The notes beneath the pieces were generated by a model. The model made no database searches. It saw only the letters and a program-made list of their open reading frames with translations, and was not told the origin of the DNA. A stretch of 64,000 bases of DNA, from the sequence record OL744216.1; one strand, given 5' to 3'. The first letter of the stretch is position 1; the number at the start of each line of letters is the position of its first letter. Positions 16,645 through 42,100 of the stretch are shown in pieces. A program made the translations under genes and the position numbers. The DNA comes from Enterobacter phage vB_ExiM_F4M1E.

Positions 16645-16728
16645 TGTGATTCCTTATGTCCAGAATGTACATGACAACACAGAGGAGGCCCACGGCCCCC
16701 AAGAACGCCAATCCAACCCAATCCGGCA

Positions 16729-18038: not shown

Positions 18039-18141
18039 TCTTACTCCTTACTTGCTGCAATATACAGCATGTGAATAGTTTTCTTTAACTCACGAACGGG
18101 CCAGTGCCTTCGTAAATTGGGGGAGTGCTCCCCCGTCATAG

Positions 18142-18795: not shown

Positions 18796-18805
18796 TTTTT
18801 ACTCC

Positions 18806-19477: not shown

Positions 19478-19478
19478 A

Positions 19479-20138: not shown

Positions 20139-20303
20139 AGCACACCCCTCGACACCAGTCCACCAAAAGTCATCATGACCGCGATGAAGTTGACAGTGAA
20201 CACTATCCGGCTCCAGATCCCATCCCCGAACACTTGGGGCCAGTACACTGCAATCAGCATAAAGGCACCATTGGTGACGAGGGCAAGCATATCGAAATGG
20301 TCT
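20127..20303 (-). CDS. small membrane protein (about 58 aa, GTG start), absent from ORF track
   Basis: GGAAGGAG RBS then GTG; hydrophobic; stop overlaps downstream ATG (ATGA). Confidence 0.3.
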
Positions 20304-20660
20304 TTACTCACGGTTAACTCCTTCCACAGAAATGACTACCAACACCCTCAAAGCACACAAAAGTAGTGCCAGGCCAAAGGTGGATACTACGGCAACAACC
20401 AACACAGGAAGCATGTATAAGCAGCCTGTCATTATTGCACCTGCAAGCGCGGCAATCACAAGCTCAGGACCTTCCAGTTCAAAAGCTGCATCCCCGTACT
20501 TTTTGTAGTCATTCCTCAGCATTAAGAACAGGAAAATAAACGACCAAACCACAATACTGGTAACAACCCAATTGGCGTTGCAAACTGGCTCGATAAATGC
20601 CATCCACTTATCAAAGACGACACCAAAATTGTGGGCAATCCATTCAAACATAGCGATCAT
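20304..20660 (-). CDS. membrane protein (3-4 TM)
   Basis: very hydrophobic 118 aa. Confidence 0.5.
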   Translation of the reverse strand: MIAMFEWIAHNFGVVFDKWMAFIEPVCNANWVVTSIVVWSFIFLFLMLRNDYKKYGDAAFELEGPELVIAALAGAIMTGCLYMLPVLVVAVVSTFGLALLLCALRVLVVISVEGVNRE

Positions 20661-20956
20661 GATCCGTACCTCACCTCATATAAAAACGTATCCAAGTCGG
20701 TCTTATCGTCCCAACCTTCAATTGACAGTGGCATCAGGCAGTTGGCATCAACAACCAACATGTCTCCGGCCCGGTCAATGCTCTCCCACCACCCGAACTT
20801 ATCTTTCTCGACAAGGAACACCACCTTGCCTAAGAACTCCGGCTGACCGCCGTGAATAAGGGCGTACCCACCCGAGAAGAGTTCACCTTCCGGGGGCAGG
20901 CACTTGTCCTTCCGTCCCAAATCACTCATTCTCGTCAACCTCTGTAAAAGTTCCAA
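20657..20956 (-). CDS. hypothetical protein
   Basis: 99 aa ORF. Confidence 0.45.
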   Translation of the reverse strand: MELLQRLTRMSDLGRKDKCLPPEGELFSGGYALIHGGQPEFLGKVVFLVEKDKFGWWESIDRAGDMLVVDANCLMPLSIEGWDDKTDLDTFLYEVRYGS

Positions 20957-21116
20957 AGATCGAGTGCTTCGCCCCTACGAACGTCACGTCCCCGGGGAAA
21001 CGCTCAACGTTCCAAGCCTTGCCATTTGGAGCCGTGGCGAGGATTTTGTATTTCTTACCCGAGGTAAATACTTCCTCAAACCCCTTGTTTACCCGGCAGC
21101 ACATCAGCATTTTCAT
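20922..21116 (-). CDS. hypothetical protein
   Basis: 64 aa ORF. Confidence 0.4.
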   Translation of the reverse strand: MKMLMCCRVNKGFEEVFTSGKKYKILATAPNGKAWNVERFPGDVTFVGAKHSIFGTFTEVDENE

Positions 21117-21322
21117 TTCTTTGCTTTCCTCTTTGATTGTGGCTCACATACCCGCGCCCGATAAGCATTGTACTCAACATAGCGCCAAGTCTTCTTTAAG
21201 TGCTCTACCAGTTCCTTCAGGTTCTCTTCATCCCTTGCCCAGCCGCAGACGTAATAACAGTCGCCAACTGACATTCGACACTTAACACTGTAATGGGTTT
21301 CAAAATCCTTGTCAAGCATCAT
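21113..21322 (-). CDS. hypothetical protein
   Basis: 69 aa ORF. Confidence 0.45.
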   Translation of the reverse strand: MMLDKDFETHYSVKCRMSVGDCYYVCGWARDEENLKELVEHLKKTWRYVEYNAYRARVCEPQSKRKAKK

Positions 21323-21494
21323 ATCTCCCCACTATCTCATCCCCAAGCCGGGCAGTCTGCTTAATCTCTTCGAGAATGTAAGAGGCATGTTCCTTACTGA
21401 TCGCCATAATGCTGAAGGAGAACTTCCGGCCCTCTACATCGTTCCACTCGATCGAGTATTCTTTCCACTCCCGTCCCTCCACGATAACACTCAT
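21312..21494 (-). CDS. hypothetical protein
   Basis: 60 aa ORF. Confidence 0.4.
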   Translation of the reverse strand: MSVIVEGREWKEYSIEWNDVEGRKFSFSIMAISKEHASYILEEIKQTARLGDEIVGRYDA

Positions 21495-21630
21495 TTGAGC
21501 ATCTCTCCGATCATTAGTCCTGTTATCATGATCTCTAATGCACCGAGCATCATCACAATGATCCAGATAACCTCGTCAACAGGTCGTCTTCCGAAGCAAT
21601 GGGCCATCAATGTCGTCAAGAAAGTGATCA
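21491..21630 (-). CDS. small membrane protein (46 aa), absent from ORF track
   Basis: GGCGGAGGAA RBS; hydrophobic; ATGA overlaps on both sides. Confidence 0.35.
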
Positions 21631-21924
21631 TAATCCCAGTTCCTCCGCCGAGTAGATGTCGTTTCCGGCGTAGCCTTGGAACAGTACCATCACTGGGTCA
21701 CAGCGACCCTTGGTGGACATGAAACGGGACTTCTCGGCATTCACCAGATAGACATCTTTGTTCACCGGGAAGGTCTTTGGCTGACCCATGCCGGGCGTTG
21801 ACACCGTGATACGGCTGTGCTTAGGGATCTTTTTGACGACTTCTACCTGCTTTCCGACCAGCGATTCGATCCCTTCACGTTCTGCTACCATATCCCGCAC
21901 TACAGGGACCATTAATTTTACCAT
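21628..21924 (-). CDS. hypothetical protein
   Basis: 98 aa ORF. Confidence 0.45.
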   Translation of the reverse strand: MVKLMVPVVRDMVAEREGIESLVGKQVEVVKKIPKHSRITVSTPGMGQPKTFPVNKDVYLVNAEKSRFMSTKGRCDPVMVLFQGYAGNDIYSAEELGL

Positions 21925-21984
21925 GATATCCTCCTCCTCTTGGGTAATACTTGAAGTCTACAGAAGTTATTGCGGGGTGTCAAA

Positions 21985-22012
21985 CGAAAAAAGGCCCCCG
22001 AAGGGACCTTTT
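21985..22012 (-). terminator. rho-independent terminator (possibly bidirectional)
   Basis: AAGGcCCC-cgaa-GGGaCCTT stem with T-runs on both sides. Confidence 0.55.
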
Positions 22013-22013
22013 A

Positions 22014-22538
22014 TTATTCTGCCGCTGCTTCCGGCATTGCTTCAGCAACTTCCGGCTCCGGAGTGAATACACGGAAAGAGGTTTCTGTCTCGATAGAGAA
22101 ACGGTCATTGTGCCGACGCAGGAATGCGTATACCGAACGGGCCTGCGTGTTTGCGTACATGATCATATCTGCCGGATGGAACTCCAAACAGGAGTGGCCT
22201 GACGCCTGCACACGCTGAATAACGTTATTCGCCTGCACGGTGATCACTTGGGCGATAAAGTTACGCAGTTCGGTAGATGCTGTTCCGGTACGAACAAACT
22301 CCGACAGATGCGGATAGAGATATTGTGGCACATTCCGATCCAGCGGGTAGAACTGCGAGTCGTTCGGCACAGACGTCGAGAAGGTCACCTTCACCGAGTT
22401 ACCAAGATTCTGCAAGATCGCATTCTCAAAAGCGGTTGTCACAATGTCAGTGATGTCCACAACCGCACCATTTTTCATCGGTGGGATGTCAAAATCGTTA
22501 CGTTCGCCACCACGTTGACGTTCAATAATCATAAACAC
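22014..22538 (-). CDS. hypothetical protein
   Basis: 174 aa ORF after primase-helicase. Confidence 0.55.
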   Translation of the reverse strand: MFMIIERQRGGERNDFDIPPMKNGAVVDITDIVTTAFENAILQNLGNSVKVTFSTSVPNDSQFYPLDRNVPQYLYPHLSEFVRTGTASTELRNFIAQVITVQANNVIQRVQASGHSCLEFHPADMIMYANTQARSVYAFLRRHNDRFSIETETSFRVFTPEPEVAEAMPEAAAE

Positions 22539-22540
22539 CT

Positions 22541-22566
22541 CAAGTTAAATGGGGCCGAAGCCCCGT
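22541..22566. repeat. intergenic GGGGC-cgaa-GCCCC hairpin (palindrome family)
   Basis: GC hairpin immediately after primase-helicase stop, no strong T-run. Confidence 0.4.
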
Positions 22567-22568
22567 TA

Positions 22569-24641
22569 TCAGAACGGACACTCATCATCCATGTCATCTT
22601 CAGGCATGTCCGGAACATCCGGGATGTCTGGTATTGCAGAAGTTACTGGCTGAATAGGTTCAGGGGTTTCCTCCTTTACCTCTTCAACGGGTTCGTCCAG
22701 GTTCAGGTCTTGCTGCTCAACCTGCTGTTCCTTGGCCTCTTCCTGTGCTGCCAAGAACTGCTCGTCCGCCGGAGGGATGTCATCATCCGTCAGGTCAGAT
22801 CCGGTCTTATCTTGGTTCTCCGGAGAGAGCGGTTGTGCTGCACTTCCCGTCGGCTCCTGATAAGAAGCGTTGCTCGGATCATGTTCCGGGTGGACCGCAT
22901 ACCACTCACGGAGAGTTTCGTATGGACTGTCCAAGAACCCTTCAGGCGGCTCCAGATAATCTCCCGTATCAATGTCATAAAACACCGGGAACTTACCAGC
23001 ACGACCGTGTTTACGGTCATCCAGGATAACGAACCACGACGTGTTACGCTGCTTCATCGGCAACTCTGGGTCTTTGTTACGCTCGATGCCCCACATGTAG
23101 TAGGTGTTACGCATCATTGCACGGGACCCGGCGAACTGTGCCGACTGCACCTGACCGCCGAACTCGTGCGGCTTACCCGCTTCCGGTTTGTTCAGGTGAC
23201 AGAAGCAATAATACGTGAAGCCCAGTTCTTTTGCAAGTTTGGAGATCTCATCCGAGAAACGCTCCAGTTCCTGGTTTGCCTCAGATGCCGACATACCCTG
23301 TACCAGACGGGTGATCGGGTCGATGAAGATGTCCTCACAACCTTCCACGATGACGGCATGTCGGATTGCACCTTTCAGTTCATCCCATACTGCACGACCG
23401 TAGTTGTTGTAGTAGATGACAGAATCACCAACTTCATCCGTTGCTGCGATCAGTTCTTCCTGTTTGAAGTAACCGCGCTGGCCCTCGAACACCTCGTTGC
23501 CCCAGATGTCACGATAGGTTCCATCTTCCTGCGGGATCATCACCTTCTCTGCGTTAACAAAGTCCTTGTGATAACGCTTCCCGGCAATCTTCTTACAAGT
23601 GATCTCGTTCTCTTCCTCGAACTTGAACACTGCGGCCTTGGCCTTCTCCACCCCGGTGATGTATTCGACCATCTGGTTGAGGAGTTCACTCTTACCCATC
23701 TTAACGCCTGCGCCGATGAAGTAACCTTCACCTTTACGACGGCCCAGTGTCAGGCGGGTCATAGTAGGCCACGGGAATTTCTTCCCGAGCTTAGGGATCT
23801 CGTGGGCCTTATCTCGGAACTGGCTGTACGTAGAGAACCCGTCCGGCACATATTCCTTCGGCTTCATCGCGGCCCAGAAAAGCTGCTGCGCCAGGCCCTT
23901 GTTGTACATGTCACAAGGGTCCATGTCTTCAGGGATATCGACCACTTTCATCTGCGGGATAACGGAATACACCGCTGCCACAGCGTCTTTACCCTTCATG
24001 ATCCCCTTGGCTTTCTCAGTTTCGTTCGCCCGGTCGGCGTCGAAAGCCACAATGATCTCTTCGAACTTACTCAGGAGCTTATAGTTGTTCTTCTGAGACA
24101 GGTTCTGTACTGCGTTGGATGTGCCGTTGGAGATTGACACAACCGTGAAGTTAGGCTTACGGGAATTGCCGTCCTTCGATTTGTAGTTCTCGCGGAGAAC
24201 TTGCCACAGAATCGCTGCATCGTACTCACCTTCGGTGATGAAGATCATACGCTTGGACGACTTGTTGGCACCCTCCAGGCCAAACAGATCACAGGCTACC
24301 GATTGGAAGCCGATGGTGCTGAAATGGCCCTTCTGCTGCTTAGGGATGGTCAGATCGCGCTTCTTAAAGCCAACGATCTTTCCTTCCAAAGTATATGGAA
24401 AATAATGCGCTTCCGGCGTCATACCGTCCTTAGCAGACAGTTTTGTGCGAATACCGAAGCGTTCAGCCGTCTTCTCATCAATCCCGCGCTCCGGGATCGC
24501 CTTGAAGGGATACGTCTTTACATCTTCAACTGTCTCTTCAACTCGCTGCACTCCGCCTCCAAAACCCCGTGTGGTTGACGCCTTCGGGTTGGTGTACCCC
24601 GTCTTGTAGCCACCGAACAATCCTTCACCAAATGTGCTCAC
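22569..24641 (-). CDS. bifunctional primase-helicase (TOPRIM primase + DnaB-like helicase, T7 gp4-like)
   Basis: TOPRIM ITEGEYDA and AFDADRANE; Walker A GAGVKMGKSELLN; C-terminal acidic tail. Confidence 0.85.
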   Translation of the reverse strand: MSTFGEGLFGGYKTGYTNPKASTTRGFGGGVQRVEETVEDVKTYPFKAIPERGIDEKTAERFGIRTKLSAKDGMTPEAHYFPYTLEGKIVGFKKRDLTIPKQQKGHFSTIGFQSVACDLFGLEGANKSSKRMIFITEGEYDAAILWQVLRENYKSKDGNSRKPNFTVVSISNGTSNAVQNLSQKNNYKLLSKFEEIIVAFDADRANETEKAKGIMKGKDAVAAVYSVIPQMKVVDIPEDMDPCDMYNKGLAQQLFWAAMKPKEYVPDGFSTYSQFRDKAHEIPKLGKKFPWPTMTRLTLGRRKGEGYFIGAGVKMGKSELLNQMVEYITGVEKAKAAVFKFEEENEITCKKIAGKRYHKDFVNAEKVMIPQEDGTYRDIWGNEVFEGQRGYFKQEELIAATDEVGDSVIYYNNYGRAVWDELKGAIRHAVIVEGCEDIFIDPITRLVQGMSASEANQELERFSDEISKLAKELGFTYYCFCHLNKPEAGKPHEFGGQVQSAQFAGSRAMMRNTYYMWGIERNKDPELPMKQRNTSWFVILDDRKHGRAGKFPVFYDIDTGDYLEPPEGFLDSPYETLREWYAVHPEHDPSNASYQEPTGSAAQPLSPENQDKTGSDLTDDDIPPADEQFLAAQEEAKEQQVEQQDLNLDEPVEEVKEETPEPIQPVTSAIPDIPDVPDMPEDDMDDECPF

Positions 24642-24651
24642 ACTTCCCCCT

Positions 24652-24805
24652 TAGTCAACGTTGCAACGTAAATCGTATTGCCGTGCATGTTGACACCAAC
24701 AGTGACCGGGCCTTTGAGTGAATAATCAAACTCATTGACCCACTTCTTGATGTTGGTTTGCAACTCAATCGGGTTTGTGTAAACCAGAATCTTAACTTCC
24801 ATCAA
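24652..24805 (-). CDS. small protein (50 aa), absent from ORF track
   Basis: MEVKILVYTNPIELQ... ORF between primase gene and next gene; weak G-run RBS. Confidence 0.3.
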
Positions 24806-25077
24806 AAACCCCCGTCTTCTTCCAAAAACGCACGTGACATTTCGGCATCACGAATTTGAGCCGAGATCTCAGCATAAATCACTTGACGGGGAATGTCAAT
24901 GTCCAGCACATCACCTTCGAAGTAGACGGCAACCGAAATGATGTCGAGGTAATCCTCAGCATCCCAGTCGCTTGCGGCATTAGGAATGCCCTTATACAGC
25001 ATCACTTCGGCTTCGACTACAACTTCCTGACCGAAATCCTTGTGAAAATATGGGAACTCTACAGTTGTGCTACGCAT
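24802..25077 (-). CDS. hypothetical acidic protein
   Basis: 91 aa ORF. Confidence 0.45.
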   Translation of the reverse strand: MRSTTVEFPYFHKDFGQEVVVEAEVMLYKGIPNAASDWDAEDYLDIISVAVYFEGDVLDIDIPRQVIYAEISAQIRDAEMSRAFLEEDGGF

Positions 25078-25112
25078 GATAACTCCTTATTGATGATTTC
25101 TTAACTGATCTG

Positions 25113-25304
25113 TTACTTCTTGCCGGAAATTTGGTCTTCTCTGACCTGTGTTTTAACTCCATCCGGCATTTCGACCAGATAAGCATTGCAGGTCAGGTAT
25201 TCCTGTTGAAGCAGGACCTTACCTTCCCCGCGATAATCCCAGCGCTGATTGCCCTGGTCAAAGAGAACAACGTCGTTGATCTCATACGCAAAAACAGGTT
25301 TCAC
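25113..25304 (-). CDS. hypothetical protein (GTG start MKPVFAYE)
   Basis: TGGGAGC RBS then GTG. Confidence 0.4.
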   Translation of the reverse strand: MKPVFAYEINDVVLFDQGNQRWDYRGEGKVLLQQEYLTCNAYLVEMPDGVKTQVREDQISGKK

Positions 25305-25480
25305 CAGATATGCTCCCAATACCTACCATCGTTAGTAACGATGTGTGAATAACCAACCCGGACACACACCACCCGGCGAGCGTCGATATTCTTGGCAGTG
25401 ATCACCCTGATGTACGGCAAACCGACAATAAGAATGAACAAGGATACCATGAATATTGCCAAAGGAATAAGCATAATCAT
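25301..25480 (-). CDS. small membrane protein (59 aa), absent from ORF track
   Basis: GGTGGAG RBS; MIMLIPLAIFMVSLFILIVGLPYI... TM helix; stop overlaps downstream GTG. Confidence 0.3.
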   Translation of the reverse strand: MIMLIPLAIFMVSLFILIVGLPYIRVITAKNIDARRVVCVRVGYSHIVTNDGRYWEHIW

Positions 25481-25692
25481 CGGAACTCCACCGCAGATAC
25501 CTTTTCGAAACCATCCTCTGCGAGGTGCTTTTCGAACAGCTTCAGTAAACGTTCAGGGGTCGTACAGGCGCTCCCCGGGTAAATCAACCACATATAACCC
25601 TCAGCACAGTTCAGGTTGATGGCGTACCCAAGGCCAGCGGCCCGATCAAAATCCCCTTCACCCTTCTTCACCAAACAACGGACATCTTTCAT
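25477..25692 (-). CDS. hypothetical protein
   Basis: 71 aa ORF. Confidence 0.4.
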   Translation of the reverse strand: MKDVRCLVKKGEGDFDRAAGLGYAINLNCAEGYMWLIYPGSACTTPERLLKLFEKHLAEDGFEKVSAVEFR

Positions 25693-25988
25693 GTTGGCCT
25701 CGTGTGTGGATGATCAGGGGCAACATACCCGGAGATAATCTGCACGAGGTGGGTACGCATCTGTTGCGTGGCCCCGTACTTATTCATCGCCGACATGATG
25801 TCGATGATCATTTGGTTGAACAAATGAGGCTTCAGTCGAGGAGTTTCACGCTCACGCTGTAAAAGCTCCTCAATCGCGCTCTCAGCGATTTCTGCCATTT
25901 GCTGGGCGTTTCCATGACATGCCTCGTCAAAACGCTCCCAGTGGCGATCTGCGGTCATTCTGACCCTATTCTGCTGCTCGCTTCCCAC
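25689..25988 (-). CDS. hypothetical protein
   Basis: 99 aa ORF. Confidence 0.45.
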   Translation of the reverse strand: MGSEQQNRVRMTADRHWERFDEACHGNAQQMAEIAESAIEELLQRERETPRLKPHLFNQMIIDIMSAMNKYGATQQMRTHLVQIISGYVAPDHPHTRPT

Positions 25989-26130
25989 GGATCTCGATCT
26001 CCAGCTTAATGTTGATCAACATCTGTTCCAAGTCTGCCTTTTGCTTCTCTACACGGCGAAGATCATCACGGCCCAGATCACGCAGGGCCAGAAGGTGACT
26101 CATGGACAGATTGCTCAGGTCTTTAGTCAT
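25966..26130 (-). CDS. small coiled-coil protein (start MTKDLSNLS)
   Basis: TGAGGAG RBS; ATGACTAA overlap with upstream stop. Confidence 0.4.
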   Translation of the reverse strand: MTKDLSNLSMSHLLALRDLGRDDLRRVEKQKADLEQMLINIKLEIEIRGKRAAE

Positions 26131-26551
26131 TGAGAGACTCCTCATATTTTTCCACCAAAGCATCAACAAAGTGGGCATGGTGAATACATGCAGATGCACA
26201 TCCGTCTTTGTGAAGCTCTTCAGAGATTTCTCTACGAAGTTCTGCCGCAGGACCAACAATATTGCGGACGTGTTTGTCAAACGACTCCCAAGCGTTGGCC
26301 CGGCCCTCTTTGCCGGGGTCTCGTTTCGCCGTGTCGATTACGAAACAACCCTCGCCCCGGCGAAGCTCGTCGGAAGAAGAACGGTACATGGACCCGGTTT
26401 TACCGGAGAAGAAAACGGATTTCTCCGTCATCTTCGTAATCACCGCCATCTCGAACGGCTTGGCTCCGGCGTTACCCCGGGAAAAGGCGATGTGGTCACC
26501 CACACGCGCCTCAATTCCGAAACAGTCCTTAATCACCACACACCTCGACAT
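26123..26551 (-). CDS. hypothetical protein (start MSRCVVIKD)
   Basis: 143 aa ORF. Confidence 0.45.
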   Translation of the reverse strand: MSRCVVIKDCFGIEARVGDHIAFSRGNAGAKPFEMAVITKMTEKSVFFSGKTGSMYRSSSDELRRGEGCFVIDTAKRDPGKEGRANAWESFDKHVRNIVGPAAELRREISEELHKDGCASACIHHAHFVDALVEKYEESLND

Positions 26552-26747
26552 CAGTTTCGAAACAGAAGAAGCCCTCGCATACCGTGCCGTCTTGGCGGGT
26601 AAAGTTGACGATGACCTCATCGTCGTCGGCGTCAATAGAGACTACGACGCCCTTATCCCCCGGATTAACCCCGTCGAGGCTGTAATCTTGCAGGTTTTCC
26701 GGATTGAAGATAACCTTTTCGCCTACCGCTACCAGTTTGTTGCTCAT
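26529..26747 (-). CDS. hypothetical acidic protein
   Basis: 72 aa ORF. Confidence 0.4.
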   Translation of the reverse strand: MSNKLVAVGEKVIFNPENLQDYSLDGVNPGDKGVVVSIDADDDEVIVNFTRQDGTVCEGFFCFETDVEVCGD

Positions 26748-28105
26748 ACCTCACCTCCAAAAATTTCAGGGAACGTTTCATGATAGAACTTACGGACACC
26801 CTGGTCAACAATAATGTCCTTCACACGCAGGCGCTTCATCAGGCGAAGACCTTCAGTGCTCGTTGCTCGGGACAGCATAACATAGGCTTGGCCCGGCGTG
26901 AAGGTGCCGAAACCTAAATCAATGTTCACTTTGCCCAGCGTCAGGCCCTGTGCTTTGTGTCCGGTGATAGCATAGCCCAATTTGAACGGGAATTGCAAGT
27001 ATTTCCCGATCTCTTTGTCAACCAGAACGGTTTGCTTCTCCATCACCTTGACAGTCTGCTTGGTGCCGTCTTCCAGTTCGATCTCTTTTTCAACCTGAAC
27101 CATCTTTTCTTCCGGGACCTGTGTCACGTTGGTCCACTCGTACTTGCCGATATGGATCGGCTTGCCGTCAATGTCCACGATGACGAAGGTCTTGGCGATT
27201 TTCTTGATGATCCCTACCGTACCGTTAACGTAATCTGGCTCCTTTTTCTTCTGGTCATTGTCGTTCACAACGATCATGACCTTCAGACCTTCTTTCAGGT
27301 TCAGAACTTCGTTGACCGGGCGCTCCGGGAACTCACCTGAGATCTTGGCTTCGAAAACATGAGGCTCGGCCTTGATCTTCTCAAACTCGCGCTGATTGAT
27401 TTGCTCTGCCAGTTTGTTGGTGGTTGTCAGAGTGACAGCACCTGGCAACGCCGGGCCGAAGCACTTCTCGTTGAAGTAATCAACTGCCGCACCAACATTA
27501 TTACCCACACGAATGTTGTTCAGGTGTTCAGCAAACACCGGGTCGGTCTGTCGGTGGACCTTCGGCAGATACGCATTCGTGAAATTCAGTTCGTTCCAGA
27601 TATCGCAGCCGAACGGGATTTCATTACCATGCAATTCACGGAACATCGCCGTTTCTTCACGCTTCAGCACAGGCTTGATCTGGAAGCCGTCGCCAAACAT
27701 GATGACCTGAAGACCACCAAAAGGCTTATTTACCTTACGATGATAGCGCAGTTTCATGTCGATCTCACGCAGCTTGTCACTACGGGTCATAGAGATCTCG
27801 TCAAAGACGATAGCATCTAACGCATCTGACGCCATCAGCATCGCAGGCTTCTTAGACTTCGCTTTGTAGTCTTCCTTGGTTGTAACACCAAAGGTAAGGC
27901 CAAATGCCTTATGGGTGGTAATGCCGTTAATATTCAGCGCCGCAATCCCGGTTGGTGCAACAAACAGGAAGCTGTCGGCAAAGAACTCACGCAGAGTGGC
28001 GATCATCAAACTCTTGCCCGAACCACCCGGGCCTGTGATGAACACGTTTTCACCTGCCATGATGGCTCGCATTGCTTCTTCGTTACCAATTACTGTCTTA
28101 CCCAT
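26744..28105 (-). CDS. SF1B DNA helicase (Dda/RecD/Pif1-like)
   Basis: Walker A GPGGSGKS, Walker B IVFDEISM, motif III FGDGFQIKPV. Confidence 0.8.
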   Translation of the reverse strand: MGKTVIGNEEAMRAIMAGENVFITGPGGSGKSLMIATLREFFADSFLFVAPTGIAALNINGITTHKAFGLTFGVTTKEDYKAKSKKPAMLMASDALDAIVFDEISMTRSDKLREIDMKLRYHRKVNKPFGGLQVIMFGDGFQIKPVLKREETAMFRELHGNEIPFGCDIWNELNFTNAYLPKVHRQTDPVFAEHLNNIRVGNNVGAAVDYFNEKCFGPALPGAVTLTTTNKLAEQINQREFEKIKAEPHVFEAKISGEFPERPVNEVLNLKEGLKVMIVVNDNDQKKKEPDYVNGTVGIIKKIAKTFVIVDIDGKPIHIGKYEWTNVTQVPEEKMVQVEKEIELEDGTKQTVKVMEKQTVLVDKEIGKYLQFPFKLGYAITGHKAQGLTLGKVNIDLGFGTFTPGQAYVMLSRATSTEGLRLMKRLRVKDIIVDQGVRKFYHETFPEIFGGEV

Positions 28106-28290
28106 TACGCCTCTGCCTCAAATTTTGTGGTACTGATGATTTTGGCCTCACTGATTTCAATATTCGTGTGACCTTTCTTCGCCAAACGGCTGGCCTTCAG
28201 TGTTGCCGCCTGCGGATCGTCAACCTTGGCGCGAACGCTTTGACCATAGCCCGCATCGGATGATACCAGAAAAACAGACTTCTCTTCCAT
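28105..28290 (-). CDS. hypothetical protein
   Basis: 61 aa ORF. Confidence 0.4.
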   Translation of the reverse strand: MEEKSVFLVSSDAGYGQSVRAKVDDPQAATLKASRLAKKGHTNIEISEAKIISTTKFEAEA

Positions 28291-28299
28291 AAAACCCCC

Positions 28300-28497
28300 T
28301 TATTCGTTACCCACGGTATGGATAAATAGGTTTAAAACTATTGCCACGCCAGTTAACAGCCCGCCGAAGAACATGACCAGCGGAACCTCATTGGCAAAAG
28401 GAGAGGCCATGAGTTCAGGGAACATCTTTTCAACACCCCATTTTCCCAAGCCGATCCAAATCAAGGCATTTACCACCACTGCAATAAGAAATCTCAT
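28300..28497 (-). CDS. small membrane protein
   Basis: two TM helices. Confidence 0.45.
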   Translation of the reverse strand: MRFLIAVVVNALIWIGLGKWGVEKMFPELMASPFANEVPLVMFFGGLLTGVAIVLNLFIHTVGNE

Positions 28498-29024
28498 GCT
28501 TTCATCTCCTTGGGTTTATAAAATACATGGTAGCCGATAGTGGCTGTCTTCGTAAAGAACTTTCTCCAGTATGGTTTGACCTTCTTCGTGTGGAAGTGAG
28601 TTGCGCCATGTGTTGGGTCCAGCTTGTTATACAATACATCATTGTTCCGGATCTTGTAAAGGAATTTCGCAATATCCTGTGCAACCATCCAAGACTCTTT
28701 ATCACGAACGGCGTACCCGCTACGGATCATCGTCCAAGAGAATTGAGAGGATTGATATACGACTTTCCTCACTGACTCCGGATAACCGTCATGTTTCAGC
28801 CTGTTCAGAGTAACAAATCCAACCGCCATCTGTCCACTGATATTTTCCCCACGCGACTCGAAATAAATATTGCAGGCCAAGGCATTGACCGACGAGTCAT
28901 TCTTTTTGCACACATGAACAACCGGGGCGAGCTTTTTCTTCGGTGTATTCTCTTTAGCTAAGGCGGATGCCGGGGCTAAAGAAAGTACGCTGGCTGCAAT
29001 GAGGGCAGCGGTGCTCTTTCTCAT
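28494..29024 (-). CDS. secreted cell-wall hydrolase, SleB/CwlJ (Hydrolase_2)-like
   Basis: signal peptide MRKSTAALIAASVLSLAPASALA; NIYFESRGE...GQMAVGFVTLNR motif; TAGGAG RBS. Confidence 0.55.
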   Translation of the reverse strand: MRKSTAALIAASVLSLAPASALAKENTPKKKLAPVVHVCKKNDSSVNALACNIYFESRGENISGQMAVGFVTLNRLKHDGYPESVRKVVYQSSQFSWTMIRSGYAVRDKESWMVAQDIAKFLYKIRNNDVLYNKLDPTHGATHFHTKKVKPYWRKFFTKTATIGYHVFYKPKEMKA

Positions 29025-29073
29025 ACAAACTCCTAAATAAGAAAGGCCCAGTTTATCACTGAGCCTTTGGAAG

Positions 29074-29475
29074 TCAAGCCTTTTTGGAGGCTTGAGCGAG
29101 GACGCCCTTCTTAACATCTTCCCAAAGGGAATTGAGGAAAGGGTCGTTCTTGATCACATCCGGATACCAAGGCCCGTAGATACGGTATACGGAATCCACA
29201 GTGATCGCATACAACTGCCCGCCATTAACTGCGAGGCCAGTTACGTAGCCCGTTCGGACTTGGGTGCCATCTTTGCCAGTCTTCCGGCGCTTCGCCTCAT
29301 TGAACTCGATATAGCCCGTCAATGTAACGATCTTCTCGGGGACTTGCAGGTCGGGCAGCTTTTCATGATTGATTAGCTGATTACCGGACTTGCTGCCCTC
29401 CAGGCAAAGATTACCCCCGTACTTCTTGCCGTACTTCCTGGCAAACTCAGCCATTTTAGTCGTGGACAATTTCAC
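29074..29475 (-). CDS. hypothetical protein
   Basis: 133 aa ORF. Confidence 0.5.
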   Translation of the reverse strand: MKLSTTKMAEFARKYGKKYGGNLCLEGSKSGNQLINHEKLPDLQVPEKIVTLTGYIEFNEAKRRKTGKDGTQVRTGYVTGLAVNGGQLYAITVDSVYRIYGPWYPDVIKNDPFLNSLWEDVKKGVLAQASKKA

Positions 29476-36081: not shown

Positions 36082-36281
36082 TCTTCAGACCAATGGCGTG
36101 TCTCGTCCGAAGAGTACACATACAAAACCGAATTTTTGCTCGTCGAAAAGAACTTCTGGATCGATTTTTCATTTACCGGGGTCCCATCTTCAAGAAAGAA
36201 ACCATCCAGAAGAATTGCCAAGCCTTTTCTGGTCTTGGATACAGAAACGTTGTAACCTTCATCAACGGTGGTGTAGATCAT
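36051..36281 (-). CDS. hypothetical protein
   Basis: 76 aa ORF. Confidence 0.4.
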   Translation of the reverse strand: MIYTTVDEGYNVSVSKTRKGLAILLDGFFLEDGTPVNEKSIQKFFSTSKNSVLYVYSSDETRHWSEEWHYRVECHG

Positions 36282-36808
36282 TATTCGTCATCCTCATTTT
36301 TGTATCGGCTTCCCTTGACATTAAAACCAACATCAGCCAAGGCATGAGCAGGCAGTCTGCCATCATCTGTCCAGAAACTCAAGGACTTTTTCTTCTCTTC
36401 CAATTCCTTATCCATCAGGGCCAATAAGACTGCCGGATTAGTCTTCGGCATAGCCTGCTGGCATTTAGAAAGCGCGGCATTGAACTGGCGGGTAATGATA
36501 TCGATCTGGTCCACCATGTCAAGTTCATCCATCGCTTCTTTACACACACAGCAGTGACCAATGTTTTTGTATTCATCCTGCCCGGTGCGGTGGCTGTACT
36601 GCTTCTTCTGGATAGGGAGCGCCCGGCGACCACAGTAAGCACACGCCCGCATTCGATCACCCTTGCCGAGGGTGGCTGTTGGGCGGAGACCTTCTTTGGT
36701 GCTGTCCCAACCTTTATGGTTTCCATTACGCCCGTACATCCAAGAGAAGAACTTTTGTGCTCTCTCATCGACATGATCTTCGCCTGCGTGTTCTGTGTGT
36801 TCAAACAT
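36281..36808 (-). CDS. HNH-type endonuclease-like protein
   Basis: CAYCG...H...N.GHCCVC arrangement consistent with HNH/zinc-finger nuclease fold. Confidence 0.4.
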   Translation of the reverse strand: MFEHTEHAGEDHVDERAQKFFSWMYGRNGNHKGWDSTKEGLRPTATLGKGDRMRACAYCGRRALPIQKKQYSHRTGQDEYKNIGHCCVCKEAMDELDMVDQIDIITRQFNAALSKCQQAMPKTNPAVLLALMDKELEEKKKSLSFWTDDGRLPAHALADVGFNVKGSRYKNEDDE

Positions 36809-37007
36809 TCCCCTCTCCTTTCATAAATTGAGCGAATGCCAACAAGTCCGCCGGAGACATGTGCTTTACATACGCCCCGTACTCACCATACAAGTTCTCC
36901 AAGACTTCCGGGCATTTGCCGGGGTGGAAGCCGAGGTTCTGGAGATTCTCGATAGTGGTGGCGATCAGCAGTAATTTTTTGAAGTCTTCTTCTTTCATTC
37001 TTAACAT
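36801..37007 (-). CDS. hypothetical protein, first gene of the leftward block
   Basis: 68 aa ORF directly downstream of leftward promoter. Confidence 0.45.
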   Translation of the reverse strand: MLRMKEEDFKKLLLIATTIENLQNLGFHPGKCPEVLENLYGEYGAYVKHMSPADLLAFAQFMKGEGNV

Positions 37008-37038: not shown

Positions 37039-37067
37039 AATATACAGGGTCTCGATCGAGAAATCAA
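37039..37067 (-). promoter_or_regulatory. leftward sigma70-type promoter TTGATT-N17-TATATT with operator-like palindrome in spacer
   Basis: perfect 12-bp palindrome TCTCGATCGAGA (37050-37061) sits in the spacer; it shares the GGTCTCGATCG word with iterons at 48.4 kb. Confidence 0.5.
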
Positions 37068-37130
37068 TACTTGAATCGTATTTTTGTTCATGCTACCTTA
37101 TTGTTCACTAAACATGAACAGGAGAGCACC

Positions 37131-37694
37131 ATGAACAAAGTCTTATCCCCGGCAGAGCAGCTTGCCATGATGATCAAGCTGGCAGCAACCCACCATATGA
37201 AGCAATTCGATAAGGGTGGTCGCCCTTACGTCCTGCACGTCCTGAAGGTGATGCATTACCTTAAAGACAAGGATGATGACGAACTAAACTGTATCGCAGT
37301 TGGTCACGATCTGATCGAAGACACTCCGGTTCAACAGTGCGACCTGGAACGCTTAGGTATCTCCGATCGTGTCATCGACGGGATCACCCGCTTAACCAAG
37401 GTCCAGTTCCAGTCTCATGATGAATATCTGAAGGATATTCTGAAGAGCCATGACGCCTGCCGTGTTAAGCTGGCTGACCTGCGCCACAACACAGATATCC
37501 GCCGTCTGAAAGGTTTGCGTCAAAAAGACTTGCAGAGAATCCAAAAGTACCATAAAATGCACATGCAGATTAAGGACATGATTGCATGGTACGAAGACAA
37601 CCATTTGAGCATGTTCTCTTTCCCGGGTGATTACTTTGATGCCCGCAACGAGCAGGTAAAATCAATCATGGAGAAAGAATACGATGCGAATTAA
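37131..37694 (+). CDS. small alarmone hydrolase ((p)ppGpp/(p)ppApp hydrolase, HD domain, Mesh1/SpoT-hydrolase-like)
   Basis: HD-domain motif GGRPYVLHVLKVM...AVGHDLIEDT; AGGAGAG RBS; first gene of rightward block. Confidence 0.65.
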   Translation: MNKVLSPAEQLAMMIKLAATHHMKQFDKGGRPYVLHVLKVMHYLKDKDDDELNCIAVGHDLIEDTPVQQCDLERLGISDRVIDGITRLTKVQFQSHDEYLKDILKSHDACRVKLADLRHNTDIRRLKGLRQKDLQRIQKYHKMHMQIKDMIAWYEDNHLSMFSFPGDYFDARNEQVKSIMEKEYDAN

Positions 37695-37851
37695 AGTTTT
37701 AGATGCCCCGCTGGGGCATAAGTTTGACCCGGACACTCACTATCGGGTGTTCCGTCCGACAGAACCGGGCAAGGCTTTCGTTGTTGATGATGACTGCGAG
37801 GCTTGCTTCTTGAATGATATGGAGTGGGAGGAGGTGACAAGTGAAATTTGA
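37684..37851 (+). CDS. small protein (55 aa), absent from ORF track
   Basis: MRIKVLDAPLGHKFDPDTHYRV...; ATG overlaps upstream stop. Confidence 0.3.
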   Translation: MRIKVLDAPLGHKFDPDTHYRVFRPTEPGKAFVVDDDCEACFLNDMEWEEVTSEI

Positions 37852-38029: not shown

Positions 38030-38556
38030 AAAAGACCCTGAGCATTGAACCAGTTGTTTCTACGTACCTCGGTCGCCCCTATGGTATGGGTGACGATTCT
38101 GTACTTGACGATGGTGACTGGCTGGATCTGGAGGATGACAAGCAGTATACGATCACCCGACTCGGATGCCGGATCAACAAGGTGGAACCGTCGGAAACGT
38201 ACTGCATGTATTACTTCCTTCACGCCATGAAGCCTGGCTGGAAGGGTGATTACCAGAAAGGTTGGACGTGGGATTCTTTCTTCACCTGTTCCTGTGGACA
38301 CGGCGGCTGTGCCGGGTATCACGAGAACGTCCGTATCCATCGCAAGAAGGCCACTGTCCGGGTAATGGGTAAGGTATCAGACGGGTACAAGGACGGAGTT
38401 GTCGGGACCGGGCAGGATGTTGTATACTTCGACAAGAAGCAGTGGGACGGTGTACGGGAATATTATCTCGACCTGTTCCGCAAGAACCCGGAAGGTATCT
38501 TCCAGGATAACGAAATGTTCTTCACCGGGCGATTTGGCCTGGCAACATGGGGTTGA
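38026..38556 (+). CDS. hypothetical protein
   Basis: 176 aa ORF, ATGA overlap. Confidence 0.5.
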   Translation: MKKTLSIEPVVSTYLGRPYGMGDDSVLDDGDWLDLEDDKQYTITRLGCRINKVEPSETYCMYYFLHAMKPGWKGDYQKGWTWDSFFTCSCGHGGCAGYHENVRIHRKKATVRVMGKVSDGYKDGVVGTGQDVVYFDKKQWDGVREYYLDLFRKNPEGIFQDNEMFFTGRFGLATWG

Positions 38557-38558
38557 GA

Positions 38559-39173
38559 ATGAAGCGTACCAAAGTAATGAACAAAGCGCGATTCCGCAAA
38601 TCCTTTTTGGGCTTTGCTGTCGCGGCTGTTGTAACCTTCACCCTGTCCGGCTGTGAGCAGGCTGACGAAACGGTGAAGCTGTACATGAACTCTGAGCAGT
38701 GTGCCAAAGAAAGTGGCAATACTCTCGAACAGTGCCAAACTGCGGAGAAAGAAGCCCAAAAGGTTGCCGCAGAAACGGCACCGAAGTTTGGGACGTATGC
38801 GGAGTGCTACGAAGAGTTTGGCAGTATGTGTCAGCACAACACAGCGGCTGCTGCCAGCACGGGCGGAGAATCGCCTTGGATGCCCCTGATGATGGGCTAC
38901 ATGCTGGGCAATATGATGGGGTCAAGTAACTCTTATCATGCGGCACCGATGTATCAGAGCCGTTCTGGTAAGTGGGTGGATAACAAGGCCCGGTCTTACG
39001 ATGTGAAGCCGGGCAAATCGTTCAAAGTAACGAAGTCTGCCATTAAGCCAAAGGTTGAGGCACCGCGATCCACTTGGTCCGGTTCCAAATCCAGCTTCTC
39101 CTCGTCAAAGACAACCACCCGTGGCGGGTTCGGTTCCTCTGTGGGGCGTAGTAGCAGTTCTTTTGGTGGATAA
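38559..39173 (+). CDS. lipoprotein with Gly/Ser-rich C-terminus
   Basis: signal peptide with lipobox LSGC. Confidence 0.5.
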   Translation: MKRTKVMNKARFRKSFLGFAVAAVVTFTLSGCEQADETVKLYMNSEQCAKESGNTLEQCQTAEKEAQKVAAETAPKFGTYAECYEEFGSMCQHNTAAAASTGGESPWMPLMMGYMLGNMMGSSNSYHAAPMYQSRSGKWVDNKARSYDVKPGKSFKVTKSAIKPKVEAPRSTWSGSKSSFSSSKTTTRGGFGSSVGRSSSSFGG

Positions 39174-39206: not shown

Positions 39207-39238
39207 GGGCCTTATTGACAACAAAGAGGAGAAATTCA

Positions 39239-40477
39239 ATGCAGCAGACTTACAAACGTACTGACCAGACGATGTTCAAGAAACGTATTTCCATTCGTCA
39301 AATGGAAGATCTGATCCGTCTCGGTGCCCGTATCGGTAAAACCACCTTCTTCTTCGGCGGCGCGGGCCTCGGTAAGTCCCAGAAAGTGTTGCAGATTGCA
39401 AATAGTATGTTCCCCCATCGTGTTGGGGACAATCTTTGTGACGTGCGTCTGTCTGACAAAGAACCACAGGATATCGCAGGTATCCCGGTCCCGGTAACCT
39501 ATTTCGATCCGGTTCAAGGCAAAGAAGTTACCCGTACTGTGTACGCATGTCCGAGTTTCTGGCCTACTGACCCAAACTGGGAAGGTATCGTGTTCTTGGA
39601 TGAACTGCCGAACGCAATGCTGGGCACTCAGCACTCTGCGTATCAGGTCATTCTGGATCACGTTGCAGGTGACCACCGATTCCCGAAAGGCTGTGTGTTC
39701 GTTGGCGCAGGCAACCGTGACACAGACAACGCAGGCACTACCGAGATGCCGGGGCCGCTGGTTAACCGTATGATCATGGCGGAGGTTGAGTACAACTTGG
39801 ATGTTTGGATCGAGGACTATGCTGTTCCGTTCAAACTTCACCCGCACGTGATCGGTTTCCTGAAACAGTTCCCTGAGCATTTTTACACAGGTGACGTAGA
39901 GAAGCGCTCTACCCCTGTGTTTGCATCACCTCGCCAGTGGAAAACTGTTTCTGATATCCTGTACGATTACGAAGTAGAGAAGAACGAGTACATCACTGAG
40001 ATCGCGATCGCGGGTTCTGTCGGTGAAGGTCTGGAAACCGCTGTTCTGGCGTACCATTTACGTGCCGCCGAACTGCCGAAAGTAGAAGACATCTTCTCCG
40101 GTAAAGTTAAGAAGCACGAACTATCTCGTGAGAAGAACGACCTGGTTTACGTACTGGCGCAGACCTGCTTACGTCAACTGGAAAAAGAAGTGATGGATAA
40201 TAACATGAACGATGAAGATTTCATCGAACGTGCCAGCAATTTCCTGAACTTCATGTTCAATAACTACTACAAGGCGAATAAAGATACCATGATCGCACTC
40301 ATGATTGGCATCTTCCGTGCATCCAATACGGATCAGCAGGCGATTCTGAGCATGAACCCGAAACGTACCAAGATGATCCCGGCCCTGCGTAAAAATTGCG
40401 AAGCAGTCATGACTATCGTAATGGAATACCAGACCCGTTACGGTAAAATCATGGAAGATTTCAACGCGAAGGCTTGA
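39239..40477 (+). CDS. MoxR-family AAA+ ATPase
   Basis: Walker A GGAGLGKS, Walker B VFLDELPNA; AGAGGAGAAA RBS at MQQTYKRT. Confidence 0.75.
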   Translation: MQQTYKRTDQTMFKKRISIRQMEDLIRLGARIGKTTFFFGGAGLGKSQKVLQIANSMFPHRVGDNLCDVRLSDKEPQDIAGIPVPVTYFDPVQGKEVTRTVYACPSFWPTDPNWEGIVFLDELPNAMLGTQHSAYQVILDHVAGDHRFPKGCVFVGAGNRDTDNAGTTEMPGPLVNRMIMAEVEYNLDVWIEDYAVPFKLHPHVIGFLKQFPEHFYTGDVEKRSTPVFASPRQWKTVSDILYDYEVEKNEYITEIAIAGSVGEGLETAVLAYHLRAAELPKVEDIFSGKVKKHELSREKNDLVYVLAQTCLRQLEKEVMDNNMNDEDFIERASNFLNFMFNNYYKANKDTMIALMIGIFRASNTDQQAILSMNPKRTKMIPALRKNCEAVMTIVMEYQTRYGKIMEDFNAKA

Positions 40478-40543: not shown

Positions 40544-42100
40544 ATGTTCGACAATATTATGAGTGCCGAGGAGCTTGAACTTGCCAACGCAAATACCGAA
40601 GAGGCAGAGAAACTCCTTGAGGCGGCAAGTCTTCAATTGATGCGCTACAAGCCCTTCTATGGGGTAATGCTGGCATCAATGCCGATCACCCGTGCCACAG
40701 AGACCATCAATACGATGGCTACCAACGGGCGTGACCTGTTTTATTCTCCGGAGTTCGTCGCCGGGATGTGTGACAAGCGCAAGGCGCTGGTAAAACAGCG
40801 TATTGACCAGCAGATCACGGACAAGAAAAAGAACGCAGAGATGAAGTTGATGATCGATGTGTTTTATCGTCGCAAGACTGCCCGTGAGGTGGCCTTGGTG
40901 CTGGAGCACGAATGCGATCACGTCGTTTCTGAGCACATGTACCGTGGGAAAGGATACAACTTCGCGCTGTTCAACATTGCAGCCGACCACCGTATCAATA
41001 CGAACGCTGTTCTCAACCACACGACGAATAATGAGATGGGTACAGCTTGGTTCCCTATGGGTGCCAAAACGGTGTTCGACCCAGACAAAGAATTTGGCTT
41101 CATGAAGTGGGCATACTGTGATTTCCAGTACGCAGATATGTATGCGGAACAGATCTATGAGCTTCTCGTTAAGCAGACCCCTCCCCCTCCGCCGAGCGGT
41201 GGTGGCGGTGGTGCATCGGGAAGCGGAGAGGAAGGTCAAGGTGATTCCGGTGGTCAGGGTAATGGCCCGATGGGTACTGACCAACACCCAAATGCAGACG
41301 GGACCTTCAGTGAGCAGGATGGGGAAGACGATCTGTCCAAAGCAATGGGCACTGACCCGGGGGCTATGAAGCCGCTGACCCAGGATCAAAAGAACTATAA
41401 CGACACGGTAATGCGCCGGGCCATCGAAAACGCTGTTCAGGCAGCGGGCAAGGGAGCGCCAGCAGATGCCCGTAAGTTTGTGGAAGAGGCCGGAAAGCCG
41501 AAGGTTAACTACCTGCGCCTGTTACGTCGGACAATTGAGCGTCTGTTCAAAGACAACGTTTCATACCGCCGTTTAAACCGCCGCAGTTACTCCCTGACGC
41601 GATCTTTACGCCAGGCGGGGTATCTGACCTCTCGACAGACGATCGGCCTTCCTTCGTACACCAAGGCCAAGACAATCCGTGCCCACGTGTTCTTCGACGT
41701 GTCTGGATCGTTCACCGATGATCTTCTGGGGCCGACCAAACGGGAAATCAAGGGGCTGTGCAATCAGTATGAGGACTTTGAGGTCACAATGGCGGCTTGG
41801 TCCACAAAGGTTGGTAACATTTGCACGTACACGAAGAAGAACCTGAAGGAGATTGATAACTATAAGATCAAGACGACTTACGGGACGGATGTGAAGTGCG
41901 TGTTCGAATGTCTTGATGAACTTGACAAAGAGCCGGACCAGATTGTAATCTATACAGATGGTTACTTCTCCGATGTATCTCAGACCAAAAACTGGGCAGA
42001 GAAGTATGGCAAGAAGACTCTGTGGATCATTTTGGGCCGTCATGGGCCGGAATGGACGCCACCGTTTGGAACTGCAATTGACTTTGACAAATACCTGTAA
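40544..42100 (+). CDS. VWA-domain protein with N-terminal HExxH putative metallopeptidase module (DUF2201-like partner of MoxR)
   Basis: MIDAS-like FDVSGSF...YTDGYF; HECDH zinc-peptidase-type motif; immediately downstream of the MoxR ATPase. Confidence 0.6.
   Translation: MFDNIMSAEELELANANTEEAEKLLEAASLQLMRYKPFYGVMLASMPITRATETINTMATNGRDLFYSPEFVAGMCDKRKALVKQRIDQQITDKKKNAEMKLMIDVFYRRKTAREVALVLEHECDHVVSEHMYRGKGYNFALFNIAADHRINTNAVLNHTTNNEMGTAWFPMGAKTVFDPDKEFGFMKWAYCDFQYADMYAEQIYELLVKQTPPPPPSGGGGGASGSGEEGQGDSGGQGNGPMGTDQHPNADGTFSEQDGEDDLSKAMGTDPGAMKPLTQDQKNYNDTVMRRAIENAVQAAGKGAPADARKFVEEAGKPKVNYLRLLRRTIERLFKDNVSYRRLNRRSYSLTRSLRQAGYLTSRQTIGLPSYTKAKTIRAHVFFDVSGSFTDDLLGPTKREIKGLCNQYEDFEVTMAAWSTKVGNICTYTKKNLKEIDNYKIKTTYGTDVKCVFECLDELDKEPDQIVIYTDGYFSDVSQTKNWAEKYGKKTLWIILGRHGPEWTPPFGTAIDFDKYL

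Follow-up and report, generated by a model that had tools for sequence, protein, structure and literature searches.

The window analysed here is a 64,000-nucleotide stretch of Enterobacter phage vB_ExiM_F4M1E (sequence record OL744216.1), a Certrevirus (Vequintavirinae) myophage, and the gene of interest occupies positions 37131-37694 of its plus strand. The product of this gene is a small alarmone hydrolase (SAH) of the RelA/SpoT superfamily, with similarity far beyond chance, and both sequence comparison and structural modelling place it in the branch typified by Aph1 from Bacteroides caccae rather than with the SpoT/Mesh1 type. We consider it probable, and the most likely of the functions weighed below, that the protein is an adenosine 3'-pyrophosphohydrolase, a stand-alone phage enzyme used against toxins of the toxic small alarmone synthetase (toxSAS) type. 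The open reading frame list and its translation give a single long plus-strand frame ending at 37694, and the feature is described as follows:

37131-37694, plus strand: coding sequence, stop codon included, for a 187-aa stand-alone SAH with an Aph1-like, probably PbcSpo-type, HD domain (open reading frame, family and structure matches, AlphaFold2 model, and Foldseek search)

A reading of this DNA made from the sequence alone had proposed an HD-domain SAH of the SpoT/Mesh1 type with no synthetase domain, citing the strings RPYVLHVLKVM and AVGHDLIEDT. Both strings are present, as residues 31-41 and 56-65, and the proposal of a hydrolase lacking a synthetase domain agreed with our results, the protein being 187 aa long with matches that span only the HD region. 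It contains a single HD hydrolase domain such as RelA/SpoT homologs (RSH) have, and SYNTH, TGS, and ACT domains are absent. The NCBIfam model spoT_relA (TIGR00691) matched with an E-value of 2.4e-11 over its hydrolase part only (model positions 3-135), and PHROG 990, labelled 'metal-dependent phosphohydrolase', matched with an E-value of 2e-60. The match to Pfam HD_4 was sub-threshold (17 bits versus a gathering cut-off of 27.2), and this accounts for the vagueness of the public annotations. We found homologs in 279 phage records and, at E<=1e-5, matches in 2,948 database clusters. PADLOC returned nothing. Some homologs that consist of the hydrolase only, such as those in MW367417 (PcCB7V) and MN184887 (pEp_SNUABM_01), are named 'GTP pyrophosphokinase' or 'putative (p)ppGpp synthase', which are synthetase names on proteins that have no synthetase domain.

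Searches of the PDB with the single sequence found the '(p)ppApp hydrolase' 7SMG, which is Aph1, with an E-value of 5.4e-18 and RelSeq (1VJ7) with an E-value of 1.1e-11. A profile built from 64 homologs matched 7SMG at 120 bits (E 7e-34), and the next-best matches were the hydrolase domains of long RSH enzymes at approximately 60 bits (E 1e-15 to 3e-8). The AlphaFold2 model made on the homolog alignment is a single all-helical domain (mean pLDDT 92.3, pTM 0.89). When this model was compared with the PDB by Foldseek, the best four matches were the four chains of 7SMG, with target-normalised TM-scores of 0.88-0.91, root-mean-square deviations of 1.6-3.0 Å, and 31-32% identity; PaSAH, Mesh1, RelH, and SpoT followed with TM-scores of approximately 0.6-0.7. 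Because 7SMG gave the best sequence, profile, and fold matches, we assign the protein to the Aph-like branch. The class of enzyme named in the sequence-only reading, an HD-domain SAH, was right, and the SpoT/Mesh1 label gives way to Aph1 as the closest characterised enzyme. In RSH nomenclature the protein probably belongs to the PbcSpo subfamily, judging from its 56% identity to an SAH from phage PVP-SE1 that has been classed as PbcSpo.

We aligned the protein with 120 homologs, gp220 of PVP-SE1, residues 9-143 of Aph1, and residues 33-165 of RelSeq. The metal-binding and catalytic set was complete (H36, H59-D60, E63-D64, D116, and N120), was invariant in the 120 homologs, and matched both Aph1 and RelSeq. 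The stretches of the active site that are discussed below are:

37209-37217, plus strand: D27-K28-G29, the base-recognition position, where D27 corresponds to Aph1 D24 and replaces RelSeq R44

37305-37322, plus strand: H59-D60-L-I-E63-D64, the HD metal-binding pair and the ED catalytic pair, equivalent to Aph1 H53/D54/E57/D58 and RelSeq H77/D78/E81/D82

37494-37553, plus strand: D122 to Y140, with the Aph signature residues D122, R125, K139, and Y140, equivalent to Aph1 D116, R119, K133, and Y134

Six residues of Aph1 (D24, R96, D116, R119, K133, and Y134) form a signature that is conserved in Aph-type enzymes and not in (p)ppGpp-hydrolysing SAHs (Ahmad et al. 2023, PMC10083569). Five of the six are kept in the window protein as D27, D122, R125, K139, and Y140. 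This includes both specificity determinants, D27 and R125. All of these except K139 were invariant in the 120 homologs, and K139 was a lysine in 115 of them. D27 aligns with RelSeq R44 and R125 aligns with RelSeq T151. In TtRel, R43 stacks on guanine and T153 hydrogen-bonds to it (PMC10083569); in our alignment RelSeq R44 corresponds to TtRel R43, and RelSeq T151 would correspond to TtRel T153. The guanine-recognising residues of SpoT/Rel/Mesh1-type enzymes were therefore not found in the window protein (B. subtilis Rel also has an arginine at the position of D27). Aph1 cleaves pApp, ppApp, and pppApp, not ppGpp, and its D24R+R119A variant acquires activity on ppGpp (PMC10083569). All 12 Aph homologs tested in that work hydrolysed ppApp, and only two had modest activity on ppGpp. 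Since D27 and R125 take the place of the guanine-contacting arginine and threonine, the base preference of the window protein is predicted to be for adenine, not guanine. The Aph family was defined with Aph1 Y90-E143, the C-terminal part outside the HD region, as the query (PMC10083569), and in a BLASTP comparison this segment matched residues 96-149 of the window protein with 37% identity (E 3e-8).

The idea in the sequence-only reading that the enzyme could detoxify alarmone-based antiphage toxins is the function best supported by our comparison, and the support comes from co-expression of toxins with what is almost certainly the 56%-identical enzyme of PVP-SE1. Jimmy et al. (2020 PNAS, PMC7229694) reported that the PVP-SE1 SAH, a PbcSpo enzyme, neutralised CapRel, PhRel, PhRel2, FaRel2, and FaRel when co-expressed with them in E. 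coli. Both of the 'stand-alone phage-encoded SAHs' in that study, from PVP-SE1 and SSU5, neutralised all five toxSASs tested, and the authors proposed that incoming phages bypass alarmone-mediated defence by means of the hydrolases that they encode (PMC7229694). The product gp220 is almost certainly the PVP-SE1 SAH that was tested. CapRel is a genuine antiphage defence in Enterobacteriaceae, as in Enterobacter chengduensis CapRel and CapRel-SJ46, and Enterobacteriaceae are the host range of the phage group to which the window belongs.

Four of these five toxSASs make no alarmone and instead pyrophosphorylate tRNA at its CCA end (Kurata et al.). In the same work ATfaRel and MESH1 restored the aminoacylation of toxSAS-modified tRNA in vitro, and the SSU5 SAH has been reported to remove the tRNA modification in cells. 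By analogy with these enzymes, the pyrophosphorylated CCA end of tRNA is likely to be a substrate of the window enzyme, one that the sequence-only reading had missed. (p)ppApp and the modified tRNA are both plausible substrates because a pyrophosphorylated A76 is chemically an adenosine 3'-pyrophosphate. No phage tRNA genes, which could act as a parallel counter to tRNA-targeting toxins, were found in the window.

Based on these results, we propose the following mechanism. H36, H59, D60, and D116 would bind a divalent metal (Mn2+ or Mg2+), and E63-D64 would activate a water molecule that splits the 3'-pyrophosphate off an adenosine nucleotide. The choice of adenine over guanine would lie with D27 and R125. 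We expect the enzyme to act on pApp, ppApp, and pppApp and, as a second type of substrate, on the 3'-pyrophosphorylated A76 of the tRNA CCA end. Host RNA polymerase would transcribe the gene, as the first of its operon, from a sigma-70-like extended -10 promoter. Made early, the enzyme would reverse the action of toxic small alarmone synthetases of the host (CapRel, PhRel, or FaRel type) or of (p)ppApp synthetases delivered into it, and through this reversal the phage would retain the use of translation and of the ATP pool. Our analysis shows the fold, the catalytic residues, the Aph signature, the homology to gp220, the stand-alone setting, and the location of the gene; we infer the substrate preference, the repair of tRNA, the timing of expression, and the role in counter-defence.

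Several points weigh against this proposal. The sixth signature residue, Aph1 R96, is not kept and is an aspartate (D102) in the window protein; this position is a glycine in 76 and an arginine in 16 of the 120 phage homologs, and R96 is the one signature residue that its describers did not place near the active site (PMC10083569). The specificity of the 187-aa protein and of its Certrevirus homologs is predicted from a handful of residues. ATfaRel, also a PbcSpo enzyme, degrades both ppGpp and ppApp (PMC7229694, PMC10083569), so membership in the subfamily alone does not guarantee specificity for adenine. Removal of the pyrophosphate from tRNA in vitro has been shown for ATfaRel and MESH1 only and for no Aph-type enzyme. 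We take gp220 to be the exact construct tested by Jimmy et al. from its being the only homolog encoded in the PVP-SE1 genome. Early timing, which the sequence-only reading had suggested, is read from the position of the gene and from the conserved, sigma-70-like extended -10 promoter candidate. In the searchable literature, no phage SAH has been demonstrated to matter during an actual infection.

The leading idea in the sequence-only reading was that the enzyme hydrolyses ppGpp, and a (p)ppGpp hydrolase could act early, break down ppGpp and pppGpp, forestall or undo the stringent response, and so keep the synthesis of rRNA, tRNA, and ribosomes high. The complete catalytic set of a RelA/SpoT HD superfamily enzyme fits this idea, a number of relatives bear the name guanosine-3',5'-bis(diphosphate) 3'-pyrophosphohydrolase, and some PbcSpo and other SAHs (ATfaRel, PaSAH, and Mesh1) hydrolyse both ppGpp and ppApp, to which can be added the modest ppGpp activity of two of the 12 Aph homologs. 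However, the guanine-stacking arginine has become D27 and the guanine-bonding threonine has become R125, the same two positions whose reversal in Aph1 gave activity on ppGpp, and Aph1, the nearest characterised enzyme, has no detectable ppGpp hydrolysis (PMC10083569). The public annotations are transferred names, not tests. Because residues of the Aph specificity type have replaced those that contact guanine, ppGpp hydrolysis is the less likely activity, and we regard a main role in blunting the stringent response as unlikely. Another possibility is that the real substrate is a different phosphorylated nucleotide, such as NADPH, PAPS/pAp, or a defence signalling nucleotide, with any action on alarmones incidental. 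RSH hydrolases are catalytically versatile, MESH1 being a NADPH phosphatase that has been crystallised with PAPS, and the clade-specific C-terminal extension described below could alter function. Against this, the part of the Aph signature that lies near the active site is complete and does not vary within the phage clade, the PVP-SE1 homolog protects cells against toxSAS toxins (PMC7229694), and positive evidence for another substrate is nil; we judge such a substrate to be quite improbable.

It could also be that the gene is an antidote to a (p)ppApp-synthesising toxin of the phage itself, as Aph1 is to the MuF-fused Apk2 or as ATfaRel is to its toxin. Aph1, the closest characterised relative, has an immunity role in a Bacteroides prophage (PMC10083569), and ATfaRel is a type IV antitoxin (PMC7229694). 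A type IV antitoxin or immunity gene of this kind would lie beside, or share an operon with, the gene of an RSH synthetase toxin, and no such arrangement was found within the window. A Pfam scan of open reading frames of at least 95 aa, carried out on concatenated polyproteins, found no RelA_SpoT synthetase domain in any frame of the 64-kb window, neighbours of the hydrolase gene included; the window leaves out approximately 85 kb of the genome. In other large lytic phages, too, close homologs have no synthetase neighbours, and the three closest short-form homologs that we looked up lie in arrays of small genes, in contigs resembling large lytic phages, with no synthetase or toxin beside them. 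Jimmy et al. called the PVP-SE1 enzyme 'stand-alone' (PMC7229694), and only approximately 0.4-1.5% of Aph homologs have MuF or portal genes nearby (PMC10083569). An immunity role is thus very improbable, and we retain the use of an adenosine 3'-pyrophosphohydrolase against toxSAS-type toxins as the favoured explanation.

The protein is longer than Aph1 and carries a segment at its C-terminus that is also found in its closest phage relatives:

37578-37691, plus strand: acidic C-terminal extension, residues 150-187, comprising a continuation of helix 8 and a predicted extra helix at residues 165-181 (homolog alignment and AlphaFold2 model)

This extension is present in approximately 45 clusters of proteins 173-199 aa long, including those of Certrevirus phages, SSBI34, and FBKp34, and is absent from Aph1 (149 aa) and from PVP-SE1 gp220. 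Its conserved features are W153, an aromatic residue at 162, R172 followed by D or N at 173, and a hydrophobic pattern at 176, 179, and 180. In the AlphaFold2 model, helix 8 extends to residue 156 and a helix is added at 165-181, with pLDDT values of 96-98 over residues 141-180. By direct count, residues 150-187 contain eight Asp or Glu residues versus three Arg or Lys residues. A direct role in RNA binding is disfavoured because the segment is acidic. Aph1 is a compact protomer of eight helices that, as its describers argue, can form a tetramer since the C-terminal helix of other SAHs is missing (PMC10083569). The core of our model superposes on 7SMG (TM-score of 0.90, target-normalised), yet the model carries the confident extra helix at 165-181. 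This helix may change the oligomeric state and is possibly incompatible with a tetramer of the Aph1 type. The extension could even make the Aph-type core functionally new, either through another oligomeric or regulated state or through docking to a toxSAS or defence protein, or else the substrate could be an undescribed adenosine 3'-pyrophosphorylated defence molecule; we think these options, taken together, rather improbable. In the docking variant, the extension-bearing enzyme would hydrolyse the product of the toxin and would also directly inhibit or sense the toxin.

The start of the gene and its position were compared with those in related phages. Across the hydrolase stretch the DNA is 97% identical to that of Klebsiella phage vB_KaeM_KaOmega and 83-85% identical to that of Cronobacter phages CR3, CR9, and PBES02. 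The protein is 98.9% identical to KaOmega gp118 (L001 5941-6564), which is annotated as a 'putative metal dependent phosphohydrolase' and is 20 residues longer, having been annotated from a TTG equivalent to window position 37071. This TTG falls in the -35 hexamer, TTGAAT, of a conserved promoter candidate. The ATG equivalent to 37131 is the start used in CR3, CR8, POP15, and the 187-aa database homologs, and it is preceded by a ribosome-binding site:

37120-37124, plus strand: Shine-Dalgarno sequence AGGAG, 6 nt ahead of the ATG at 37131 and invariant in relatives

The ATG at 37131 with this AGGAG is likely to be the true start, with the KaOmega TTG start corrected to it.

We also examined the region ahead of the gene. 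The sequence-only reading had described the hydrolase gene as the leading gene of a rightward block, and the open reading frame map and the KaOmega annotation bear this out, with minus-strand genes up to 37007 and plus-strand genes from 37131. The divergent intergenic region between the two blocks is 123 bp long, and conservation of it extends to CR3, CR8, and POP15 and, in part, to SSBI34. It contains the following candidate elements:

37071-37099, plus strand: rightward sigma-70-like promoter candidate, with a -35 TTGAAT at 37071-76, a 17-nt spacer, an extended -10 TG at 37091-92, and a -10 TACCTT at 37094-99

37039-37067, minus strand: leftward promoter-like site of the divergent block, TTGATT-17-TATATT (consensus scan, 9/12 matches)

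37102-37120, no strand assigned: perfect palindrome TGTTCA-N7-TGAACA, between the -10 element and the ribosome-binding site; the sole exact match in the window

The rightward promoter candidate is conserved in CR3, CR8, and POP15, its TGn element is also found in SSBI34, and its pattern has only this one exact match within the window. The transcription start predicted from it is near 37106-37110. With its weak -10 hexamer it lies under the threshold of a generic scanner and was recognised through conservation across phages only. The hexamer TGTTCA/TGAACA occurs four times near the start of the gene (37085-90, 37102-07, 37115-20, and 37132-37), and the middle pair forms the palindrome. Its arms are conserved among relatives and its loop varies. 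The palindrome is a possible operator for a phage or host regulator, or a possible hairpin in the 5' untranslated region; the fold energy of an RNA hairpin at 37102-37120 was not significant (z -1.07). Judging from these elements, early expression driven by the host polymerase is plausible. A literature search found no transcript-timing data for Vequintavirinae.

The hydrolase gene overlaps the gene that follows it:

37684-37851, plus strand: 55-aa gene of PHROG 15304, of unknown function, whose ATG overlaps the final 11 nt of the hydrolase gene (37684-37694)

The same 11-nt overlap is annotated in KaOmega, CR8, POP15, and SSBI34. This overlap suggests that the two genes are co-transcribed and translationally coupled. 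Further downstream, among small genes of unknown function, are genes for a DUF1190 lipoprotein-like protein with an LSGC lipobox (38547-39173), a MoxR-like AAA ATPase of PHROG 1297 (39215-40477), and a DUF2201 putative metallopeptidase and VWA-like protein (40544-42100), for which the PHROGs label 'HNH endonuclease' is apparently wrong. PVP-SE1, rV5, and phiTE have kept the MoxR-VWA pair, and the general gene order is as in PVP-SE1. On the other side of the intergenic region, the first two genes of the leftward block are promoter-proximal and uncharacterised. They encode a 175-aa Cys-rich, zinc-finger-like protein of PHROG 13698 (36281-36808, minus strand; CAYCGRR...HCCVCKE) and a 68-aa protein that has no family match (36801-37007, minus strand). 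The replication module lies in the leftward block, at 9653-29117 (minus strand), with genes for a family A DNA polymerase (13766-16429), a DnaB-like helicase (22569-24641), and a PIF1-like helicase (26744-28105), and also for a protein with a cell-wall hydrolase domain (28494-29117) and a 667-aa protein with no Pfam match (9653-11656), all on the minus strand.

In some relatives the region just upstream of the hydrolase differs from that in the window. The annotation of Pectobacterium phage phiTE makes the hydrolase the C-terminal half of a 413-aa protein, phiTE_055 (L005 811-2052). We considered this as an informative domain fusion and rejected it, the hydrolase part having kept its own ribosome-binding site and ATG. 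The N-terminal 230 aa of phiTE_055 have no Pfam match, are unrelated to PVP-SE1 gp219, and have no counterpart in the window. This part is probably an inserted upstream open reading frame that is read in frame with the hydrolase, and it underlies PHROG 30929. In PVP-SE1 and many Seunavirus and Klebsiella relatives, a gene of the gp219 type precedes and overlaps the hydrolase gene; no such gene is present upstream in the window. PVP-SE1 gp219 itself (L002 1479-2507) is 342 aa long, is named 'thymidylate kinase' in RefSeq, and has no Pfam match at E<=0.01.

Toxic alarmone synthetases, including CapRel, PhRel, FaRel, and exported (p)ppApp synthetases, serve as real weapons against phages and between bacteria. 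It has been suggested that phage SAHs are the corresponding counter-defence, a role that in the searchable literature has been shown by co-expression only. The window gene offers a tractable test case, being a stand-alone, promoter-proximal gene of a lytic phage of the Klebsiella/Enterobacter/Cronobacter group. It also comes with a sharper prediction, namely that the substrates are adenosine 3'-pyrophosphates ((p)ppApp and tRNA-CCA-PP) and not mainly ppGpp. Names now in the databases, among them 'metal-dependent phosphohydrolase', 'ppGpp pyrophosphohydrolase', and even 'GTP pyrophosphokinase', lack precision or are wrong. Stand-alone phage SAHs, the neutralisation of toxSASs, and the Aph-type signature of (p)ppApp specificity have already been published. 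What our analysis adds is the Aph-like assignment, a predicted main substrate other than ppGpp, the probable correction of the start codon, and the clade-specific extension. These findings extend existing knowledge without changing its concepts and will not surprise a specialist. The worthwhile question is whether such an enzyme defeats CapRel-type defence during infection, and this can be tested directly in the Certrevirus group.

The window protein can be set beside five known systems. The hydrolase domain of SpoT/Rel and metazoan Mesh1 share with it the HD fold and the catalytic H, HD, ED, D, and N residues, but their profile and TM matches are weaker, the guanine-contacting residues are replaced in the window protein, and the latter has no synthetase or regulatory domains. 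The SAH of Salmonella phage SSU5 is likewise a stand-alone phage enzyme. It counteracts every toxSAS with which it was tested and is in routine use for the detoxification of CapRel and FaRel2; it belongs to a different subfamily, PaSpo. ATfaRel from Cellulomonas marina, the type IV antitoxin of FaRel, is a single-domain SAH of PbcSpo, the subfamily assigned to the PVP-SE1 homolog. It neutralises all toxSASs and strips the 3'-pyrophosphate from tRNA in vitro. Unlike the window gene, the gene for ATfaRel shares an operon with that of its toxin, and the enzyme breaks down both ppApp and ppGpp.

Aph1 (PDB 7SMG) has metal-binding and catalytic residues identical to those of the window protein, at an overall identity of approximately 31-32%, and both are phage-borne. 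Aph1 is an immunity protein encoded beside a MuF-fused (p)ppApp synthetase of a temperate phage, whereas no synthetase partner of the hydrolase gene was found in the window; and Aph1, with eight helices in a tetramer, lacks the C-terminal helix that is predicted for the window protein. The fifth system is gp220 of PVP-SE1 (Seunavirus, Vequintavirinae), whose 56% identity extends over 147 residues, the whole catalytic domain (E 1e-57), and which has the same catalytic and Aph-signature residues. In both phages the stand-alone hydrolase gene lies near the start of the rightward block, past a divergent promoter region and upstream of a MoxR-like ATPase gene, although it is the second gene of the block in PVP-SE1, behind the 342-aa gene, and the first in the window. 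The window protein carries the 38-residue acidic extension and gp220 does not. This clade-specific C-terminal extension, with its predicted extra helix, is the sole new element relative to the known enzymes.

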